Assembly (NCBI GenBank): GCA_902561325.1
Contig: CACEOL010000004.1
Span: forward strand, 8,349-72,348
Length of the DNA stretch: 64,000 bases
Direction: 5' to 3'
DNA from: an uncultured SAR86 cluster bacterium
GTDB taxonomy: Bacteria; Pseudomonadota; Gammaproteobacteria; Magnimaribacterales; AG-339-G14
Shown: positions 19,458 through 27,628 of the stretch, one piece after another
How the letters are laid out: every line of letters starts with the position of its first letter
How positions within the stretch are numbered: position 1 is the first letter of the stretch
Translations under genes and position numbers: made by a program
Notes under the pieces: model-generated
Told to the model about the DNA's origin: nothing
Seen by the model: the letters and a program-made list of their open reading frames with translations, nothing else
The model's database searches: none

Positions 19458-20171
19458 ATGGAAAAAAAAGAACTTCTCACTAAAGGAAAAGCCAAAGAGC
19501 TTTACAAGACATCAGATGATTCAAAACTCGTAATGGACTTCACTGATGATACTTCGGCATTTGACGGAAAAAAAATAGAACAACTAGCTGGAAAGGGAAC
19601 AGTGAATAATAGATTCAATAACTTTATTATGAATCACTTGGATTCTAAAGGTGTGGCTTGTCATCTTTTGGAAGAACTTAATGATCGTGAAAGTTTAGTT
19701 TTATCTTTAGACATGTTTCCGATTGAATGTGTTGTAAGAAACTATGCTGCTGGAAGTATTTGTAAGCGACTTGGTTTAGAGGAAGGGATGAAATTCGAAA
19801 ATCCTATATTTGAATTCTTTTATAAGGATGATGACTTAGGAGATCCGATGATAAATGATAATCATATAATTTCTTTTGGATGGGCAGAATCAGATGACAT
19901 AGATATTCTTAAAAAACTAACTTTAGAAATTAATGACCATTTAGTAGACTTATTTCTTAAAGCAGATTTAATTCTAGTTGACTTCAAACTAGAGTTTGGA
20001 AAACACTCTGGAAAAATATACCTTGGCGATGAGTTTACTCCAGATGGATGCAGAGTTTGGGACAAGGAAACCAAAAAGAAACTAGATAAAGATAGATTTA
20101 GATTAGGTCTTGGAGATGTGGTTGAATCTTACCAAGAGATAGCTCATAGACTTGGCGTAAATTTAACTTAA
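19458..20171 (+). CDS. purC: SAICAR synthase
   Basis: GKAK, ECVVRNYAAGS, FFYKDD.LGDP, LVDFKLEFG, DEFTPDGCR.WD, LDKDRFR. Confidence 0.97.
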   Translation: MEKKELLTKGKAKELYKTSDDSKLVMDFTDDTSAFDGKKIEQLAGKGTVNNRFNNFIMNHLDSKGVACHLLEELNDRESLVLSLDMFPIECVVRNYAAGSICKRLGLEEGMKFENPIFEFFYKDDDLGDPMINDNHIISFGWAESDDIDILKKLTLEINDHLVDLFLKADLILVDFKLEFGKHSGKIYLGDEFTPDGCRVWDKETKKKLDKDRFRLGLGDVVESYQEIAHRLGVNLT

Positions 20172-21215
20172 GCTTTTATTAATTTCTTCCAAAATCTCAC
20201 TTCCTGGACAAAGTTCGTCTTGTTCTAAAGTATTTAAAGGTTTATCAGGTAAATCCATTATTTCAGTCAGAGACTTACATTTATTATCTACGTAAAGAAG
20301 TCCAGTAATAATTTTTCCTTCTTTATTTTTTTCCCTAATTAGATCCAAAGAATTTCCTGCATCTGTAGGATCAAAATTATTATCGGTTTTTTCTAGAGAT
20401 AGTCTAGACCCATCATGAAGTTTAACTTCTACACTTGAGCCTTCATCATAATTTGTCTTTATTTCTTCTCCTAATGGGACAAAGTCTGTTTTACCCATTG
20501 CTTCGTTATGATTTCGAATGTAGTCATAACTTTTTGTTGAAGAATCATGATTGTTGAAAGTTACGCAAGGACTAATAATATCCAAGAGCGCAAAACCTTT
20601 ATGTTGTATAGCTCCCATAATTAAAGGTACTAACTGATCTCTATCCCCAGAAAAACTTCGAGCTACATATGATGCTCCCATCTGTATTGCCATAGAAGTT
20701 AGATCTATCGGAGGAAATAAATTATCTTCTCCATACTTATTTTTGGATTCAAGATCGTTTGTTGCGGAAAATTGTCCTTTAGTTAAACCATAAGTTCCAT
20801 TATTTTCAACAAAATAAACCATATTAACTTGCCTTCTAATTGCATGGATAAATTGCCCAATACCAATTGAGGCACTATCTCCATCTCCCGATACCCCTAA
20901 GTAAAGAAGATCTTCATTGGCACAGTTTGCACCTGTGGCTATTGAAGGCATTCTTCCATGGACAGAATTAAATCCATGAGAAGCATTTAAAAAATATGCT
21001 GGAGCTTTTGAAGAACAACCAATACCAGATAATTTAGCTACTTTATAAGCTTCGATATTCAGCCTAAAACAAGCTTCAATGATACAAGCACTTATAGAAT
21101 CATGACCACATCCAGCACATAGAGTAGAAACGCCTCCTTCATAGTCTCTTCTTGTAAGACCTAATTTATTTTTTTCTAAGTTAGGATGTTTATTTATTGG
21201 TTTAAAGTAACTCAT
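20163..21215 (-). CDS. 2-oxoacid:ferredoxin oxidoreductase beta subunit (KorB-like)
   Basis: LCAGCGH, SGIGCSS, HGR, TPP motif GDGD...ENN.TYGLTKGQ, SPCVTFN. Confidence 0.93.
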   Translation of the reverse strand: MSYFKPINKHPNLEKNKLGLTRRDYEGGVSTLCAGCGHDSISACIIEACFRLNIEAYKVAKLSGIGCSSKAPAYFLNASHGFNSVHGRMPSIATGANCANEDLLYLGVSGDGDSASIGIGQFIHAIRRQVNMVYFVENNGTYGLTKGQFSATNDLESKNKYGEDNLFPPIDLTSMAIQMGASYVARSFSGDRDQLVPLIMGAIQHKGFALLDIISPCVTFNNHDSSTKSYDYIRNHNEAMGKTDFVPLGEEIKTNYDEGSSVEVKLHDGSRLSLEKTDNNFDPTDAGNSLDLIREKNKEGKIITGLLYVDNKCKSLTEIMDLPDKPLNTLEQDELCPGSEILEEINKSLS

Positions 21216-23044
21216 GTCATTAAGGCCTGTTGTGATTCTCTTTCGTAAATTTTCTTAGCAATAAATTTTGCTTGAATTGGATCACCATTAAACCAAACTA
21301 GTGATCTAAGCTTTTCTGCTGAAATTCCTCCTTCAGCCATTATTAAAGTTCTCATTTGGCTATCTCTATTTTGTTCAATTACATATATAAGGTCATGGTT
21401 TTCAATGAATTCCCATACATCTAAGTTGAAAGGAAAAGATCTAATTCTCATTAAATCTACTTCAATATTATTTTCGTTAAGAATGTCTTTAGCTTCATAC
21501 ATTGCAGCAGATGTACTACCGTAAAAAATTACCCCAGAGCTTCCTTGTTTTTCAGAAAGATTAATTATTGGGTCGGGAACTAATTCAGATGCAGTTCTAA
21601 ATTTTTTTACTAGCCTTGTTAAAGTTTGCTCATTGATATCTCCATTTTCTGTATACCTAGCATATTCATCATGAGATGTTCCTCTCGTAAAGAAAGCTCC
21701 CTTCTCTGGATGAGTTCCTGGATAAGTTCTATAACAAATACCATCATCATCGACATCTAAATATCTACCAAAATTATCCATATTATCTAAATCTTCAGCT
21801 TTAAGAACTTTTCCTCTGTCGTATTTTTGATTATCATCCCATTCAAATTTATCTGTAACCCAATCATTCATTCCAATATCTAAATCGCTAATTACAAATA
21901 CAGGAGTTTGTAATCTTTCAGCTAAATTGAAAGCTTCTGCAGAAAATTCAAAACATTCCTGAGGGTCTTCAGGAAATAAAAGTACATGTTTGGTATCTCC
22001 ATGAGAAGCATAAGCACAAGAGAGAATATCTGATTGTTGGGTTCTTGTCGGCATTCCGGTTGAAGGCCCACCTCTTTGAATATTAAAAATAACTAGAGGC
22101 ACTTCTGCAAAGTAAGCAAGACCTAAAAATTCACTCATTAATGAAATTCCTGGACCGCTTGTTGCAGTAAAACCTCTTGCGCCATTCCAATTTGCACCTA
22201 TCGCCATACCAATAGCAGCTAATTCATCTTCAGCTTGAACACTTATGTAATTATTTTTTTCTGTCTGTGAGTCAATCCTGTACTTTGAGGCATACTTTTC
22301 AAAGCCTTCTGCAACAGAGGTAGATGGCGTTATTGGATACCAAGAGCAAAATGTAGCTCCCCCATATACTGCTCCTAAACCACAAGCATCATTTCCTGAA
22401 ACAAGTATTTTATTTTTAAGCTTATCTTCTCTTTTGACATTAATTCCTAGCGGATAAGGTAAATTTTTTAAGACGTAGTCTCTTCCGATATTTAAAGCTT
22501 TTATATTTGGCTCAATAAGAGCAGGCTTGCTTACAAATTGTTCCGAAATTAATTTCTCAAGCACCTCATATTCGATTTCTAAAAGAGGCGATAATGCTCC
22601 TACATAAGCAATATTTTTAAATAAAGCCCTTTGTTTAGCATTTGTGAAGGAATCCACACAAAGTTGTGTTAATGGAATTTCAATAATTGTGATGTCATCC
22701 CTATTAAAATTTCTTTTCCAAGTTGAATCATATAAAAGGTAACCGCCTTCTGAAATCTCCTCAATATCTTGAGAATAAGTTTGGGGATTCATTGCAACAG
22801 CAATATCTACACCACCTCTACTTCCTAAATATCCTTTATTATTAACTCTGACTTCAAACCAAGTTGGTAAACCTTGGATATTTGAAGGAAAAATATTTTT
22901 TGGACTTATGGGTATTCCCATCCTAAAAATAGACTTTGCAAACATTTGGTTTGCACTTGCAGAACCTGTTCCATTAACATTTGCAAATTTAATGACAAAG
23001 TCATTAAGCGAATTAATAGGATCTACTTTTACAGGATTTTCCAT
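21212..23044 (-). CDS. 2-oxoacid:acceptor oxidoreductase alpha subunit (gamma-alpha fusion, KorA-like)
   Basis: NVNGTGSASAN, YPITPS, QAEDE, TATSGPG, QRGGPSTGMPT. Confidence 0.93.
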   Translation of the reverse strand: MENPVKVDPINSLNDFVIKFANVNGTGSASANQMFAKSIFRMGIPISPKNIFPSNIQGLPTWFEVRVNNKGYLGSRGGVDIAVAMNPQTYSQDIEEISEGGYLLYDSTWKRNFNRDDITIIEIPLTQLCVDSFTNAKQRALFKNIAYVGALSPLLEIEYEVLEKLISEQFVSKPALIEPNIKALNIGRDYVLKNLPYPLGINVKREDKLKNKILVSGNDACGLGAVYGGATFCSWYPITPSTSVAEGFEKYASKYRIDSQTEKNNYISVQAEDELAAIGMAIGANWNGARGFTATSGPGISLMSEFLGLAYFAEVPLVIFNIQRGGPSTGMPTRTQQSDILSCAYASHGDTKHVLLFPEDPQECFEFSAEAFNLAERLQTPVFVISDLDIGMNDWVTDKFEWDDNQKYDRGKVLKAEDLDNMDNFGRYLDVDDDGICYRTYPGTHPEKGAFFTRGTSHDEYARYTENGDINEQTLTRLVKKFRTASELVPDPIINLSEKQGSSGVIFYGSTSAAMYEAKDILNENNIEVDLMRIRSFPFNLDVWEFIENHDLIYVIEQNRDSQMRTLIMAEGGISAEKLRSLVWFNGDPIQAKFIAKKIYERESQQALMT

Positions 23045-25074
23045 TAGGCGACTTCCTTAGCTTTAGCCTTATCTTTATTTAAGTTATGCGCCTCGATGTA
23101 ATTATTTTGTTGAATATCCCAAGCACCAGTCGGACACCTTTCAGCACAGAGTCCACAATGAACACACATATCTTCATCTTTAATCATGACTCTTCCAGTA
23201 GCTAGTTTTCCTGATACATAAAGGTCTTGATCCAAATTCAAAGCCGGCACTCTAAGTTTTTCTCTAACCTTTTCTTCAGTATCATTTGTAGTGAATGTAA
23301 TGCAATCTGTCGGACAAATATCAACACAAGCATCACACTCTATACAAAGCTTTTCTTGAAAAACTGTCTGCATATCACAATTCAGACATCTCTGTGCTTC
23401 ATCAAGTGCGAGTTTCTCATCAAAGCCTAATTCGACTTCCATTTTAAGATCATTTAGAGCTTCTTTTAAATCTGCATGAGGGACTTCCAGACGAGCTTCT
23501 TGAGAAATACCGTTATCATAGGACCATTCATGAATTCCCATTTTTTGACTTACTAAATTTGTAAGTGGTGGAGGCCTATCGAATAAATCAACTTCGCTAC
23601 AAAAATTATCTATGGAAATTGCAGCTTGATGGCCGTGTGCTACAGCCCATATGATATTTTCAGGACCCCAAGCAGCGTCACCACCAAAAAAGACTTTTGG
23701 ATGAGAAGACTGCATTGTAGTTTTATCAACAATAGGGCAGTCCCATTCATTAAAATCAATTCCGATATTTTTTTCTATCCATGGAAAAGCATTGTCTTGA
23801 CCAATTGCCAGAAGCACGTCGTCGCACTCAATAATTATTTCTTCACCCGTAGGAATCAACTTTCTTTTACCATCGGTATATTGAGCTTCCATTTTTTCAA
23901 ATTTCATTCCCTTAAGCTTGCCTTCATCATCCAATAAAAACTCTTTTGGAGAAGTGTTATCTAAAATAGGAATTCCCTCATCAATTGCTTCTTCCAACTC
24001 CCAATCAGATGCCTTCATGTCTGACTTTGGACTTCTAACAGTTACTTTAACGTCATCTGCTCCTAATCTAATGGCTGTTCTACAGCAATCCATAGCTGTA
24101 TTTCCTCCTCCAATAACAATAACTTTCTTACCTATTGATTTGGTATGCTCGAAAGCAATACTTGTTAACCAATCGATTCCAATATGAATATTTTCACTAG
24201 CTTCTTTTCTACCAGGTATTTCAAGATCCTTACCTTTAGGCGCCCCTGTGCCAACAAATACAGCATCAAAAGAATCGATAACATTTTCTAGGCTATCAAT
24301 GTAGGAATTAGTTTTCAGTTCAGCTCCCATTTTGATTATTCTGTAAACCTCTTCATCTAAAACTTCCGCAGGAAGCCTAAAAGATGGAATATTGGTTCTC
24401 ATTAATCCACCGGGTTTATTATCTTTCTCAAAAATAGTAACTTCATAACCTAGTGGCAGTAAGTCTCTGGCTACTGTTAAGGATGCAGGACCTGCACCAA
24501 TCAGGCCTATTTTCTTACCATTTTTAACTTTCGGAATCTCAGGGAGATAAGGATCAATATCATTCTTGTAATCATAAGTGACTCTTTTTAGTCTACAGAT
24601 AGCTACTGGCTTATCATGAGTTCTTCCTCTTCTACATGCAGGTTCACATGGTCTATCACAGGTCCTTCCAAGTATCCCTGGAAATACGTTTGATTCCCAG
24701 TTAAGCATATATGCATCATCATATTTTTTTTGAGCTATCAAACGAATGTATTCAGGGACATTGGTATGAGCAGGACATGCATATTGGCAATCAACTACTT
24801 TATGAAAATATTGTGGATCAGAAATATCAGTTTTTTGCATGTGCTCAGTTCCTCTAAGCACAATGCCTTTATCATCTGCATTGACTTTCCTGATTTGGAA
24901 TTCAGTTTTAAACTCTTCAATTATTTTATCTCTGATGGGTATTGCTTTTTCTAAATCCTTTTCGCCAGTTGTTCTTCTTAAATCATAGCCTAATTCACTT
25001 CTTAAAGACAAAGGTACAGCAAGTTTTACCCACCATACATTGTTTCTTTTAAACAAATATTTTTTATCAGACAT
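23044..25074 (-). CDS. GltD-like FAD/NAD(P)/Fe-S oxidoreductase with C-terminal ferredoxin domain and N-terminal DUF6538-like domain
   Basis: CQYACPAH, CDRPCEPACRR, GAGPA, GGGNTAMDC, two CxxCxxCxxxCP motifs; extra 78-aa N-terminus YLFKRNNVWWVKLAVP..LR..LG..LRRTTG.KDL..A. Confidence 0.9.
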   Translation of the reverse strand: MSDKKYLFKRNNVWWVKLAVPLSLRSELGYDLRRTTGEKDLEKAIPIRDKIIEEFKTEFQIRKVNADDKGIVLRGTEHMQKTDISDPQYFHKVVDCQYACPAHTNVPEYIRLIAQKKYDDAYMLNWESNVFPGILGRTCDRPCEPACRRGRTHDKPVAICRLKRVTYDYKNDIDPYLPEIPKVKNGKKIGLIGAGPASLTVARDLLPLGYEVTIFEKDNKPGGLMRTNIPSFRLPAEVLDEEVYRIIKMGAELKTNSYIDSLENVIDSFDAVFVGTGAPKGKDLEIPGRKEASENIHIGIDWLTSIAFEHTKSIGKKVIVIGGGNTAMDCCRTAIRLGADDVKVTVRSPKSDMKASDWELEEAIDEGIPILDNTSPKEFLLDDEGKLKGMKFEKMEAQYTDGKRKLIPTGEEIIIECDDVLLAIGQDNAFPWIEKNIGIDFNEWDCPIVDKTTMQSSHPKVFFGGDAAWGPENIIWAVAHGHQAAISIDNFCSEVDLFDRPPPLTNLVSQKMGIHEWSYDNGISQEARLEVPHADLKEALNDLKMEVELGFDEKLALDEAQRCLNCDMQTVFQEKLCIECDACVDICPTDCITFTTNDTEEKVREKLRVPALNLDQDLYVSGKLATGRVMIKDEDMCVHCGLCAERCPTGAWDIQQNNYIEAHNLNKDKAKAKEVA

Positions 25075-25199
25075 TTAAAGTGTACCTTATGTTCATCTCA
25101 CGGCATTTATTTTAAAGAGATTATAGTATTTTTATTTAAAAGGTACAATACACAGTAATATGGTTATGAATTGTTTGTTTTTGATTAAATGTACCTTTT
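25011..25199. repeat. four copies of the TGTACCTT/AAGGTACA motif, including a 10-bp inverted repeat
   Basis: AAGGTACA 25011-25018; TGTACCTT 25081-25088; AAAAGGTACA 25138-25147; TGTACCTTTT 25190-25199. Confidence 0.7.
25120..25148 (-). promoter_or_regulatory. sigma70 promoter of the kor operon
   Basis: Minus strand TTGTAC (25148-25143), 17-nt spacer, TATAAT (25125-25120). Confidence 0.65.
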
Positions 25200-25215
25200 T
25201 AGATTATTGTTTTCG

Positions 25216-25224
25216 TGGTACTAT
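25216..25224 (+). promoter_or_regulatory. extended -10 promoter of the isc operon
   Basis: TGgTACTAT, 20 nt upstream of ATG 25245. Confidence 0.45.
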
Positions 25225-25244
25225 TCACGCGAAATTTAGATGAA

Positions 25245-26450
25245 ATGAATACTTATTATTTTGATTACGCTTCTACAACTCCAGTTGATTCCTTGGTGGT
25301 TGATAAGATGAAGGATTGTTTGTCAGTCGATGGAGCTTTTGGTAATTCAGGATCGAGATCACATGTTTATGGCTGGAAGGCTGAAGAATTGGTTGAGGAA
25401 GCAAGAGTAAATGTTGCCAACTTAATCAACTGTGACTCCAGGGAAATAATTTGGACTTCTGGAGCTACTGAATCAGATAACCTGGCAATTAAAGGCGCAG
25501 CATATTTCTATTCAAATAAAGGCAAACACATTATCACTTCTAAAATTGAACACAAAGCTGTTTTAGATGTATGCAGACAACTTGAAAGCGAATCTTATGA
25601 AGTTACATATTTGGAGCCCAATAAGGATGGTGTAATTACTCCAGAGTCTGTTGAAGCAGCTCTAAGAAAAGATACTGTTTTAGTTTCTTTAATGCATATT
25701 AACAATGAAATAGGCGTTATAAATGATATTGATTCTATAGGAAAAATTGTAAAACAAAATGGAAGTATCTTTCACGTTGATGCAGCACAAAGCGCTGGCA
25801 AGATTCCAATTGACATTCAGAATTTAGAGGTAGATTTAATGTCATTTTCTGCTCATAAAATTTATGGCCCTAAAGGAATCGGAGCATTATATATAAGAAG
25901 AAAGCCTAGGGTACGTCTTCAACCTTTATTCCATGGCGGAGGTCAAGAAAGAGGTATAAGGGCAGGTACACTTCCAACACACCAGATAGTGGGAATGGGC
26001 GAAGCTTTTAAGCTTGCTAAGGAAAAAATGTCAGAAGATTTTAAAAACCTATCTAAATACAGAGATATTCTTTGGAATGGATTGAAAGATATGGAAGAGG
26101 TTTATATAAACGGAGCAATAGATAATACGTTTCCAGGAATCTTTAACATGTCATTTAATTTTGTTGAAGGTGAGTCTTTGATAATGGCTTTAAAAAATAT
26201 TGCTGTTTCATCTGGTTCTGCTTGCACTTCTGCCAGTCTTGAGCCTTCTTATGTTCTAAGGGCTTTAGGAAGAAAAGATGAACTTGCTCACAGCTCTATA
26301 AGATTTTCTTTCGGAAGGTTTACAAAGGAACAAGAAGTTAAAGAAACAGTAGAGCTTGTAAAAGATTCTGTTAACAAACTTAGAGAAATCTCGCCGTTAT
26401 GGGAAATGTACCAAGATGGCGTAGATTTAGATAAAATAGAGTGGGCATAA
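25245..26450 (+). CDS. iscS: cysteine desulfurase IscS (ATG 25245 preferred over GTG 25215)
   Basis: [50 protein letters not shown]. Confidence 0.97.
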
Positions 26451-26477: not shown

Positions 26478-26900
26478 ATGGCTTATTCACAGAAAGTGGT
26501 AGATAAATTTGAACAAACTCTAAAAAATCCTAAAGAAGCAAGTGTAGGTAGATGGAAACCTGGAGACAAAGATTTTCACAGAGTAGGCACAGGAATTGTT
26601 GGCGCTCCTGCGTGTGGAGATGTCATGAAGCTTCAAATTAAATGTGAAAACATAGACGGCACTAATAAGATTGTTGATGCTAAGTTCAAGACTTATGGCT
26701 GTGGTTCAGCAATTGCTTCAAGCGGAGAGCTTATTGATATGCTCAAAGGCAAAACTTTAGAAGAGGCTCAAAATATATCAAATCAAGAAATCGTAGATAT
26801 TCTTGAGTTGCCAGCTATAAAAATTCACTGTAGCGTCCTTGCTGAAGAAGCTATCCATAGGGCGATAGATGATTTCAAAAGCAGAAGAAATAATGACTAA
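26478..26900 (+). CDS. iscU: Fe-S scaffold IscU
   Basis: GAPACGDVMKLQI, FKTYGCGSAIASS, KIHCSVLAE. Confidence 0.96.
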   Translation: MAYSQKVVDKFEQTLKNPKEASVGRWKPGDKDFHRVGTGIVGAPACGDVMKLQIKCENIDGTNKIVDAKFKTYGCGSAIASSGELIDMLKGKTLEEAQNISNQEIVDILELPAIKIHCSVLAEEAIHRAIDDFKSRRNND

Positions 26901-27628
26901 TGCCAAAAATAAAAGTATTGCCTCATGCTGAAATATGTCCTGATGGTGCAGAATTTGAAGCAGAATCTGGAATTTCTGTTTGTGAAAATCTTCTTAATCA
27001 AGATATAGATATAGAACATGCTTGTGAACTCTCATGCGCTTGTACTACATGTCATGTCATTTTCACAGAAGGTTTTAATTCCTTGAATGATTCTTCAGAT
27101 GATGAGGAAGATTTATTGGATAAAGCGTGGGGCTTAGAGTCAAGATCAAGATTAAGTTGTCAGACATTAGTAGAAGATGCAGATTTGGAAATACAAATTC
27201 CTAAATACACAATAAATATGGTTTCAGAAAATCACCCTAAACCCGCTACGAACTCAACAAAAGAAATTTCTTCAAAAGATTTTGATATTTCTAATACTGC
27301 AGCTACACATTTAACTGAAATGATTAAAGCAAATAATTCTTTTGGGGTCCGCATATCTTTAAAAGACTCAGGGTGCTCAGGCTTTGCGTATCAACTTGAC
27401 TTAATCGATGACAAAGATGAAAACGATTTTGCCGGCCTAGTAAATGGAGTAAATTTATTTATTCATGATAAAAGTTTTGTTTTCCTTAAAGGTACTAAAC
27501 TTGACTTCGTCAAAAAAAACTTAAATCAAGAACTGGTTTTTTTGAATCCAAATGTTTCAGCTGAATGTGGTTGCGGTGAAAGTTTTAATTTCGACACCGA
27601 GCTTGTAAAAGACCTATCCAACAACTAA
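26900..27628 (+). CDS. fusion of ISC [2Fe-2S] ferredoxin (N-terminal) and IscA/HesB carrier (C-terminal)
   Basis: EHACELSCACTTCH...DKAWGLE..SRLSCQ, then SGCSGFAY...F.NPN...CGCGESF, in one frame. Confidence 0.92.
   Translation: MPKIKVLPHAEICPDGAEFEAESGISVCENLLNQDIDIEHACELSCACTTCHVIFTEGFNSLNDSSDDEEDLLDKAWGLESRSRLSCQTLVEDADLEIQIPKYTINMVSENHPKPATNSTKEISSKDFDISNTAATHLTEMIKANNSFGVRISLKDSGCSGFAYQLDLIDDKDENDFAGLVNGVNLFIHDKSFVFLKGTKLDFVKKNLNQELVFLNPNVSAECGCGESFNFDTELVKDLSNN

Follow-up and report, generated by a model that had tools for sequence, protein, structure and literature searches.

We analysed a stretch of 64,000 nucleotides from the genome of an uncultured SAR86 cluster bacterium (contig CACEOL010000004.1; the whole stretch is referred to below as the window), in which the first gene of the kor operon encodes a GltD-like iron–sulphur (Fe-S) flavoprotein with an extra domain at its N terminus. 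Judged from its sequence, this domain, of the DUF6538 type, is homologous to the N-terminal domains of tyrosine integrases. The fusion is conserved and under purifying selection, the domain has four alternative partners (a GltD-like protein, IscS, KorA and an NfnA-like subunit), and an 8-bp DNA word, AAGGTACA, strictly co-occurs with it. The explanation that we favour, and to which we assign a probability of about 0.6, is that the extension is an integrase-derived, operator-binding domain tethered to an enzyme, which would autoregulate the operon that it heads and, in the window, the isc operon as well.

Fusion of a DUF6538-like domain to the first kor enzyme

The open reading frame at 23044..25074 on the minus strand is a single uninterrupted frame, whose product begins with MSDKKYLFKRNNVWWVKLAVPLSLRSELGYDLRR. 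The gene and its parts are as follows.

23044..25074, minus strand: whole fusion gene (676 aa); DUF6538-like domain, linker and GltD/NfnB-like Fe-S flavoprotein with a C-terminal 2x[4Fe-4S] domain
24895..25074, minus strand: residues 1-60, the DUF6538-like domain, supported by Pfam, alignment, AlphaFold2 (AF2) models and the ratio of non-synonymous to synonymous substitution (dN/dS)
24841..24894, minus strand: residues 61-78, a linker of variable length and sequence, with low model confidence at residues 70-78
24838..24840, minus strand: internal ATG (M79), placed where the ancestral enzyme starts; AGAGGA at 24850-24855 precedes it by 10 nt

The 78 residues that precede M79 are encoded by 24841-25074 (minus strand), and residues 79-676 make up the GltD/NfnB-like Fe-S flavoprotein. 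The Pfam matches of this enzyme body, Fer4_20 (PF14691), Pyr_redox_2 (PF07992) and 2x[4Fe-4S] (PF12838), each lie above their own cut-off. The score with the NCBIfam model NF009410 was 426 bits against a cut-off of 516, i.e. the enzyme is related to this subfamily and falls under its threshold. As the NF009410 alignment begins only at residue 74 (profile position 28 of 566), the N-terminal 73 residues are outside the enzyme family model. This agrees with the initial annotation, which had seen 78 extra N-terminal residues on the 676-aa GltD-like frame.

The sole Pfam match of the 78-aa extension is DUF6538 (PF20172), with residues 6-60 aligned to profile positions 1-56 of 60 (E value of 6.8e-6, 26.1 bits). 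Relatives exceed the DUF6538 cut-off (P0066 scores 43.8 bits), and PF20172 is pre-listed for P0009, P0010, P0031 and P0035-P0042. A profile built from 26 domains (alignment A1) matched 459 proteins at E<=1e-3 among 1.84 billion representatives; among these were proteins of 384-523 aa with E values of 1e-12 to 1e-8. When 10 of the longer matches were scanned with Pfam, eight combined DUF6538 with Phage_integrase, one had DUF6538 and a SAM-like domain only, and one joined DUF6538 to NAD_binding_1/DHODB_Fe-S_bind, the arrangement of an NfnA/PyrK-like reductase. The DUF6538-type identity, which had been proposed from a pattern of residues, is thus borne out. As had also been stated, the window contains no match to the integrase catalytic domain (PF00589); the fusion protein does not have the core-binding/catalytic architecture, and the two PF00589 proteins of the window's genome are Xer-like frames of ~300 aa, one at C4:73631-74152, past the end of the window, and one on C9. 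No further DUF6538 was found in this genome. A free-standing gene for the domain could not be clearly established among the short top profile matches inspected (65-260 aa; 14 + 11 sequences), which mostly resemble truncated or frameshifted pieces of fusions.

We surveyed the order to which the bacterium belongs: 266 genomes of ~0.7 to 1.8 Mb, in 22 genera and four families (f1, which includes the window, to f4). The domain is present in 97 of the 266 genomes, in exactly one copy each, and every frame is open and runs into an enzyme. By family, it was found in 43/49 genomes of f1, 35/47 of f2, 18/139 of f3 and 0/30 of f4. A full-length in-frame fusion, aligned from query residue 1-3, was seen in 20 of 41 related genomes; 19 of these 20 copies have no internal stop, and one has a TGA. 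The survey of relatives, which the initial annotation had set as a test, shows therefore that the fusion is not unique to this assembly. The linker varies in length and sequence between genomes, with the reading frame always kept. Over the 54 codons of the domain, the median dN/dS was 0.24 for GltD-fused (239 usable pairs), 0.13 for IscS-fused (38 pairs) and 0.13 for KorA-fused forms (296 pairs), synonymous sites being near saturation in these comparisons. The junction of domain and enzyme is bridged by metatranscriptome contigs from three runs of two studies, though such contigs can contain DNA; one contig of 176 nt corresponds to 24825-25000 with zero mismatches. The RNA data consisted of contigs only, and hence provide neither start sites nor strand information; positions 25096-25176, uncovered by contigs in four runs, were not used as evidence.

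AF2 models of the domain had predicted local distance difference test scores (pLDDT) of 81.4 (78 aa) and 89.4 (60 aa), with ~90 in the core. The predicted elements are strands at residues 7-10, 13-19 and 31-35 and helices at residues 22-28 and 41-59, and linker residues 70-78 are modelled as disordered. The models thus contain the three strands plus helix anticipated in the initial annotation, and the predicted fold would fit the arm-binding criterion of a three-stranded sheet on a C-terminal helix, with an extra short helix (residues 22-28). Invariant in the 26 aligned domains are Y6, L7, K9, R10, W15, V16, V20, P21, G29, D31, L32, R33, A44 and R48. The source 10.1101/542381 gives as hallmarks of arm-binding domains an aromatic residue in strand 2, a positively charged last strand, a Gly before the helix and an Ala in the helix. 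Three of the four are matched by residues invariant in the 26 sequences, W15 (strand 2), R33 (strand 3) and A44 (helix); the fourth, the Gly (G37), is found only in forms from family f1.

Enzyme partners and the accompanying DNA word

All loci inspected are alike in that the operon begins with the gene that carries the domain, placed at the N terminus of the product. Eight of the 41 related genomes lack a kor-linked flavoprotein and match residues 3-60 at 50-72% identity in frames of ~480 aa, which turned out to be IscS with the domain fused in frame at its N terminus. These IscS fusions amount to 12 unique loci, spread over all four genera of family f1, and were seen solely in that family; two short f2 frames (G237 and G212) that were considered as IscS fusions were rejected, being GltD fusions that are truncated at the end of a contig. 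A search of five IscS-fusion genomes (90-93% complete) found no KorA. In 10 of the 12 IscS fusions a start-type codon is absent from the last 24 codons before the IscS body, and three lack any such codon upstream of codon +17 of the body, so that IscS in such loci must be made as a fusion.

A word-indexed protein search with residues 1-80 returned 40 proteins: one GltD-type cluster, 31 of IscS type and eight of KorA type (701-725 aa). KorA fusions were found at 31 unique loci, in metagenome-assembled genomes labelled Woeseiaceae, Chromatiales or Gammaproteobacteria; the homologous KorA of Chromatiaceae, Thiodiazotropha, Sedimenticola and others is without the domain. On metagenomic contigs, an NfnA/PyrK-like fusion heads an operon of nfnA-like, gltD/nfnB-like, korA and korB genes, and here five NfnA-like loci have the domain versus 66 scored without it. 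The possibility that the domain is always beside iscS was rejected, since it is not so in genus g15 of family f3, in Woeseiaceae or on the NfnA-type contigs.

For scoring, we counted GGTACA in both orientations over the 150 nt that precede the domain's ATG, with the rest of the same loci as background. The full 8-bp word AAGGTACA is found upstream of the domain's start codon in all four partner settings, usually in 2-4 copies and in either orientation. GGTACA was present upstream in 72 of 73 unique domain-bearing loci (GltD 30/30, IscS 12/12, KorA 30/31), with a mean of 2.47, 2.08 and 1.39 copies for GltD, IscS and KorA, respectively, against a background of 0.055-0.064 per 150 nt. All five NfnA-type loci carry 2-4 copies by eye, and automatic start choice counted 3, 1, 4, 0 and 2. 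In control loci, the word was seen in 5/45 domain-less KorA loci (mean of 0.11), in 1/66 domain-less NfnA-like loci and in 0/12 iscR loci of family f3. Across sites, the consensus reads (A)AGGTACA; the A at -1 before GG is kept in 94% of 67 sites of the GC-rich KorA loci. Copies are arranged as inverted pairs, direct pairs or tandem triplets, on both strands. Inverted pairs take the form TGTACC-N~20-GGTACA in IscS fusions and that of a palindrome, GGTACATGTACC, in f2, and the arrangement TGTACCTT-N~20-GTGGTACAAT, as on the iscS side of the window, precedes the fused DUF-iscS genes. The word is kept across lineages in which the surrounding sequence and the base composition are unrelated.

In the window, the 170-bp spacer between the fusion gene and iscS has three AAGGTACA sites, lying within or next to the promoter regions of kor and iscS; the layout is given below.

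25011..25018, plus strand: fourth AAGGTACA, within the domain coding sequence (codons for AVPL), which coding constraint alone may explain
25081..25088, minus strand: site 1, AAGGTACA on the strand of the fusion gene, in what is presumed to be the kor 5' leader, 7-14 nt before the domain's ATG
25120..25128, minus strand: TACTATAAT, a -10-like element of the kor operon, read by eye, with TTGTAC 17 nt upstream of TATAAT and overlapping site 2
25140..25147, plus strand: site 2, AAGGTACA, overlapping the -35 region of the presumed kor promoter
25190..25197, minus strand: site 3, reading TGTACCTT on the plus strand, 18 nt upstream of the extended -10 of iscS
25216..25224, plus strand: TGGTACTAT, an extended -10-like element of iscS, read by eye
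25245..26450, plus strand: iscS, unfused in the window and divergent from the fusion gene, with its ATG at 25245

Together, sites 2 and 3 make up the perfect inverted repeat AAAAGGTACA/TGTACCTTTT. All three spacer sites are unchanged in nine of nine genomes of the same genus, in which neighbouring positions vary. Positions 25216-25224 vary as TGnTAnnAT among these genomes, and we therefore take them for part of a promoter rather than a fourth operator. The window contains seven copies of AAGGTACA versus 1.25 expected, a number reached in none of 100 shuffles; four of the seven fall in 25011-25197, and the other three are inside genes. Genome-wide, GGTACA occurs 212 times in 1.17 Mb, and the fusion locus, with four copies, is the sole cluster of at least three. 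The initial annotation had described iscS as divergent from the fusion gene and had suggested a link to both operons; the first is as described, and the repeated, conserved word in or beside both promoter regions supports the second.

A wider regulon in the window's genome was considered and found no support, the other GGTACA pairs being inside coding sequences. Outside the window, the opening 20 codons of a trpE-like gene contain a perfect inverted pair, AAAGGTACA-N8-TGTACCTTT (G000:C1:158809-158832). The pair encodes ..KGTYNRVPL.., which we take to be a motif conserved in TrpE, and is probably a coding coincidence rather than an operator.

We compared the histories of the domain and of its IscS partner. 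On a tree of IscS bodies (31 rows), the fused/free label needs at least three changes, forced by well-supported branches, and the window's clade is nested among fused forms. On the domain tree (58 columns), IscS-fused domains group with the GltD-fused ones of the window (support of 89), and a single clade of all fused forms is not rejected (p-AU, the P value of the approximately unbiased test, of 0.15). The fused domains of genus g4 lie apart from the GltD-fused ones of the same genus on this tree, unlike their IscS bodies. Taken together, the IscS and domain trees imply repeated transfer of the module, or of the locus allele, between partners or lineages. The orientation of the module relative to iscS is opposite in the GltD-fused and IscS-fused states; no sites of the kind needed for a simple inversion were found at the junctions. 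One DUF-IscS allele of genus g1 (L026, in genome G014) groups with genus g4 on both trees, the cause being lateral exchange of the locus or else faulty binning.

Proposed mode of action and its alternatives

In the mechanism that we propose, residues 1-60 would be a domesticated integrase N-terminal (arm-binding-type) module for nucleic acid binding, connected by a flexible linker to the first kor enzyme. The module would recognise the 8-bp AAGGTACA, as their co-occurrence suggests. Through copies in or beside the kor promoter and, in the IscR-less family, the divergent iscS promoter, the enzyme would repress the operon that encodes it and, in the window, isc as well. An oligomeric enzyme body may supply the multivalency to hold several loosely spaced sites in either orientation, and titration of the enzyme into its complexes is a possible way of tuning the response. 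The initial annotation had proposed a PutA-like enzyme-regulator. The conserved and selected fusion is consistent with that likeness. The module also heads IscS, KorA and an NfnA-like subunit, however. This promiscuity towards partners argues against a PutA-like redox-specific allosteric control, and favours generic tethered negative autoregulation.

Several points weigh against the proposed mechanism. The domain of the window scores 0.9 bit under the curated DUF6538 gathering cut-off of 27. Foldseek searches of the PDB with the 78-aa and 60-aa models gave no match at E<=1e-3, although small domains are hard for the method; a PDB sequence search with the domain profile returned three irrelevant matches (E>=0.76) and no solved relative; and a fold search of a viral library was weak throughout (best E value of 1.6e-2), its 50 matches, all at E>=0.016, including five integrases, about nine HNH endonucleases and one AP2/ERF entry. 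The similarity to solved arm-binding folds that the initial annotation had expected is thus not demonstrated by the models. A literature search found no paper naming DUF6538, so that the function of even the integrase-borne domain rests on analogy. It is difficult to conceive of one way of sensing a signal that all four unrelated partners would share. The kor and iscS promoters that we read by eye were missed by the consensus promoter scan, family f3 loci bear a single site, and GGTACAAT doubles as a -10-like hexamer in AT-rich genomes, so that some copies may be promoter elements. In addition, the related genomes are non-independent samples, and kinship inflates the counts.

It is possible that the domain does not bind nucleic acid at all and serves in docking, assembly or localisation of Fe-S/ferredoxin-linked enzymes, AAGGTACA being bound by another regulator that travels with the operons. 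All four partners belong to Fe-S/ferredoxin-linked metabolism, and both the lack of a significant fold match to solved DNA-binding domains and the undocumented function of DUF6538 in the literature searched would fit such a role. We consider it unlikely, however, because the word follows the presence of the domain: it is absent from homologous domain-less operons in two enzyme families, and persists with the IscS partner where the kor operon was not found. The conserved residues, moreover, are largely basic or aromatic (K9, R10, W15, K17, R25, R33 and R48), and the homologues are integrase N termini. If nucleic acid is bound, it may be RNA. On the coding strand, one copy usually precedes the ATG by 10-50 nt, probably in the leader, and the domain might bind its own mRNA there, at AAGGUACA, to act on translation or stability. 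To this we give only a small chance. Copies occur on both strands and upstream of likely promoters, such as GGTACATGTACC in f2 and TGTACC-N~20-GGTACA in IscS fusions, and their inverted, direct and tandem arrangements fit DNA better than RNA; an Rfam search of 24800-25400 gave no match at E<=1.

The extension may alternatively be a translated passenger or an untranslated relic, only the M79 start being used and the upstream frame being kept by its overlap with promoter and leader. The start at 24840, which the initial annotation had named as a possible only start, indeed has an ATG with AGAGGA 10 nt upstream in the window's genus, so that a second, short isoform is possible there, and an ATG is retained at the old enzyme start in 18 of 30 unique GltD-fusion loci. 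The remaining 12 loci are without that ATG, and five of the 30 have no ATG, GTG or TTG in the 45 codons preceding the enzyme body; IscS in most kor-less relatives has no other start than that of the fusion. With dN/dS at 0.13-0.24, synonymous change near-saturated, and the frame open in all 97 genomes despite linker indels, we find a relic or passenger very improbable. Hardly to be expected, finally, is that word and domain form a site-specific recombination system, in which the domain would be an arm-binding factor for Xer-like recombinases that shuffle the module between gltD and iscS. The three or more changes of state on the IscS tree, the conflict of the two trees for genus g4 and the inversion of the module relative to iscS between states could be accommodated in this way. 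However, no sites are present at the linker/enzyme boundary or the iscS start, the genome encodes just two Xer-like recombinases and no second DUF6538, and no alternative joints were seen in the reads and contigs examined.

IscR, of the Rrf2 family, is the usual regulator encoded upstream of iscS, and the initial annotation had placed the fusion gene in the slot usually held by iscR. We found no Rrf2/IscR match (PF02082) in any of 49 f1 relatives or in the window's genome (0/50), while it is present in 38/47 genomes of f2, 111/139 of f3 and 1/30 of f4; only the IscR-less family f1 shows the IscS fusion. Sites are present on both the kor and the isc side in eight of eight f1 spacers inspected. 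In f2, iscR sits between iscS and the fusion gene, and the spacers contain the sites together with an IscR-box-like sequence; f3 loci are not beside isc. Since f2 and f3 have both the fusion and IscR, the fusion predates the loss of IscR. IscR is thus missing throughout the family; a fusion tied in its origin to the loss is not supported. Within the f2 spacers (L077 3338-3544, L072 and L078), we noted CCGACTAATnTTGTCAAG-like sequences in the iscR-proximal part, which resemble IscR type-1 boxes. Their position beside the palindromic GGTACATGTACC suggests that two regulators may share the spacer.

Tentatively, enzyme-tethered autoregulation can be taken further. IscR may have been replaced in one family by an integrase-derived module riding on whichever enzyme heads the locus; where kor was lost, IscS itself would be the isc repressor. 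Free IscS would sit on AAGGTACA operators, from which engagement with IscU or acceptors would titrate it away; demand would then be sensed by a circuit that has no dedicated regulator gene. DUF6538-type modules would then be a new class of portable enzyme-tethered transcription factor domains, with an operator conserved across distant Gammaproteobacteria. We regard this extended scenario as possible, if doubtful.

Enzymes that double as repressors are few, textbook cases: PutA, BirA and NadR are bifunctional enzyme-repressors ('trigger enzymes'), of which RbkR is an archaeal member. Like these, the fusion places a module of DNA-binding type at the N terminus of a metabolic enzyme, in a single polypeptide, and candidate operators lie in its own promoter region and in the divergent one. 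Unlike in these, the module is integrase-type, and not ribbon-helix-helix or helix-turn-helix, and it is found on four unrelated enzymes, which makes control by one enzyme's redox or substrate state unlikely as a general rule. IscR resembles the fusion in being encoded beside the isc promoter, where the fusion protein would be the presumed isc autoregulator of the IscR-less family. It differs in that the domain is of unrelated fold, has no Fe-S ligand motif and coexists with IscR and an IscR-box-like sequence in the f2 spacer; PF02082 gave no match in the fusion protein itself. AP2/ERF and ApiAP2 factors contain an integrase/HNH-associated three-strand-plus-helix domain recruited for transcription control. 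These factors, unlike the fusion, are eukaryotic and free-standing, and no sequence or significant structural link to the domain of the window was found. With integrase arm-binding domains and DUF6538, the module shares sequence homology, N-terminal position, the predicted three strands and C-terminal helix and three of the four hallmarks given in 10.1101/542381; short repeated sites of variable orientation and spacing, if recognised by the module, are a further likeness. Unlike in integrases, no core-binding or catalytic domain follows the module, the sites are at metabolic promoters and not at att arms, an extra short helix is predicted between strands 2 and 3, and there is no significant Foldseek match.

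Literature searches for domesticated integrase domains, IscS fusions and AP2/arm-binding regulators, covering titles and abstract openings, found nothing describing such a fusion. Enzyme-repressor fusions are a known kind; the integrase-type module, its portability over four enzymes and the conserved word are, to our knowledge, new. What seems to have been adopted as a portable autoregulatory tag is a DNA-binding domain of mobile elements, and the same word is conserved from AT-rich planktonic genomes to those of GC-rich sediment Woeseiaceae. Such a recruitment in bacteria would have its eukaryotic counterpart in the AP2 transcription factors, for which domains of integrase/HNH type were recruited. 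The fusion is also a candidate answer to how Fe-S biogenesis and ferredoxin-linked 2-oxoglutarate oxidation are controlled in a streamlined, IscR-less and very abundant marine lineage, and provides the uncharacterised DUF6538 family with a candidate recognition sequence.

Neighbouring genes

The kor operon is a 2-oxoglutarate-oxidising, ferredoxin-linked system. The genes that follow the fusion gene are as follows.

21212-23044, minus strand: korA, downstream of the fusion gene in the same operon
20163-21215, minus strand: korB, downstream of korA; the fusion gene is the first gene of the operon

A 2-oxoglutarate:ferredoxin oxidoreductase is noted for two SAR86 (Magnimaribacterales) families in PMC11582366. 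Beside korB, positions 19458-20171 of the window hold a purC-like flank, and kor-less relatives carry an aldehyde dehydrogenase and an acetolactate-synthase-like gene beside DUF-iscS (L023 78-2978). As the far-side flank differs between the two locus states, the region beside iscS behaves as a variable island.

At two loci of genus g15 of family f3 (L074 4664-5815 and L076 1741-2949), DUF-gltD-korAB adjoins a gene that, from its translation alone, is cystathionine-lyase/synthase-like and pyridoxal phosphate-dependent (PLP), instead of isc. Downstream of korB in Woeseiaceae and NfnA-type loci (L094 7116-9563 and L160 10438 onward) is a gene for a protein of ~815 aa with a C-terminal ferredoxin-like Cys motif; at these loci, this protein may accept the electrons of the kor system. 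On the isc side of the window, the 242-aa frame after iscU (26900-27628, plus strand) looks, from its translation, like two proteins fused into one, the N-terminal half being that of a 2Fe-2S ferredoxin and the C-terminal half IscA/HesB-like. Again going by translations, family f2 has iscA and fdx as two separate genes in that order (L077 867-1223 and 501-839).

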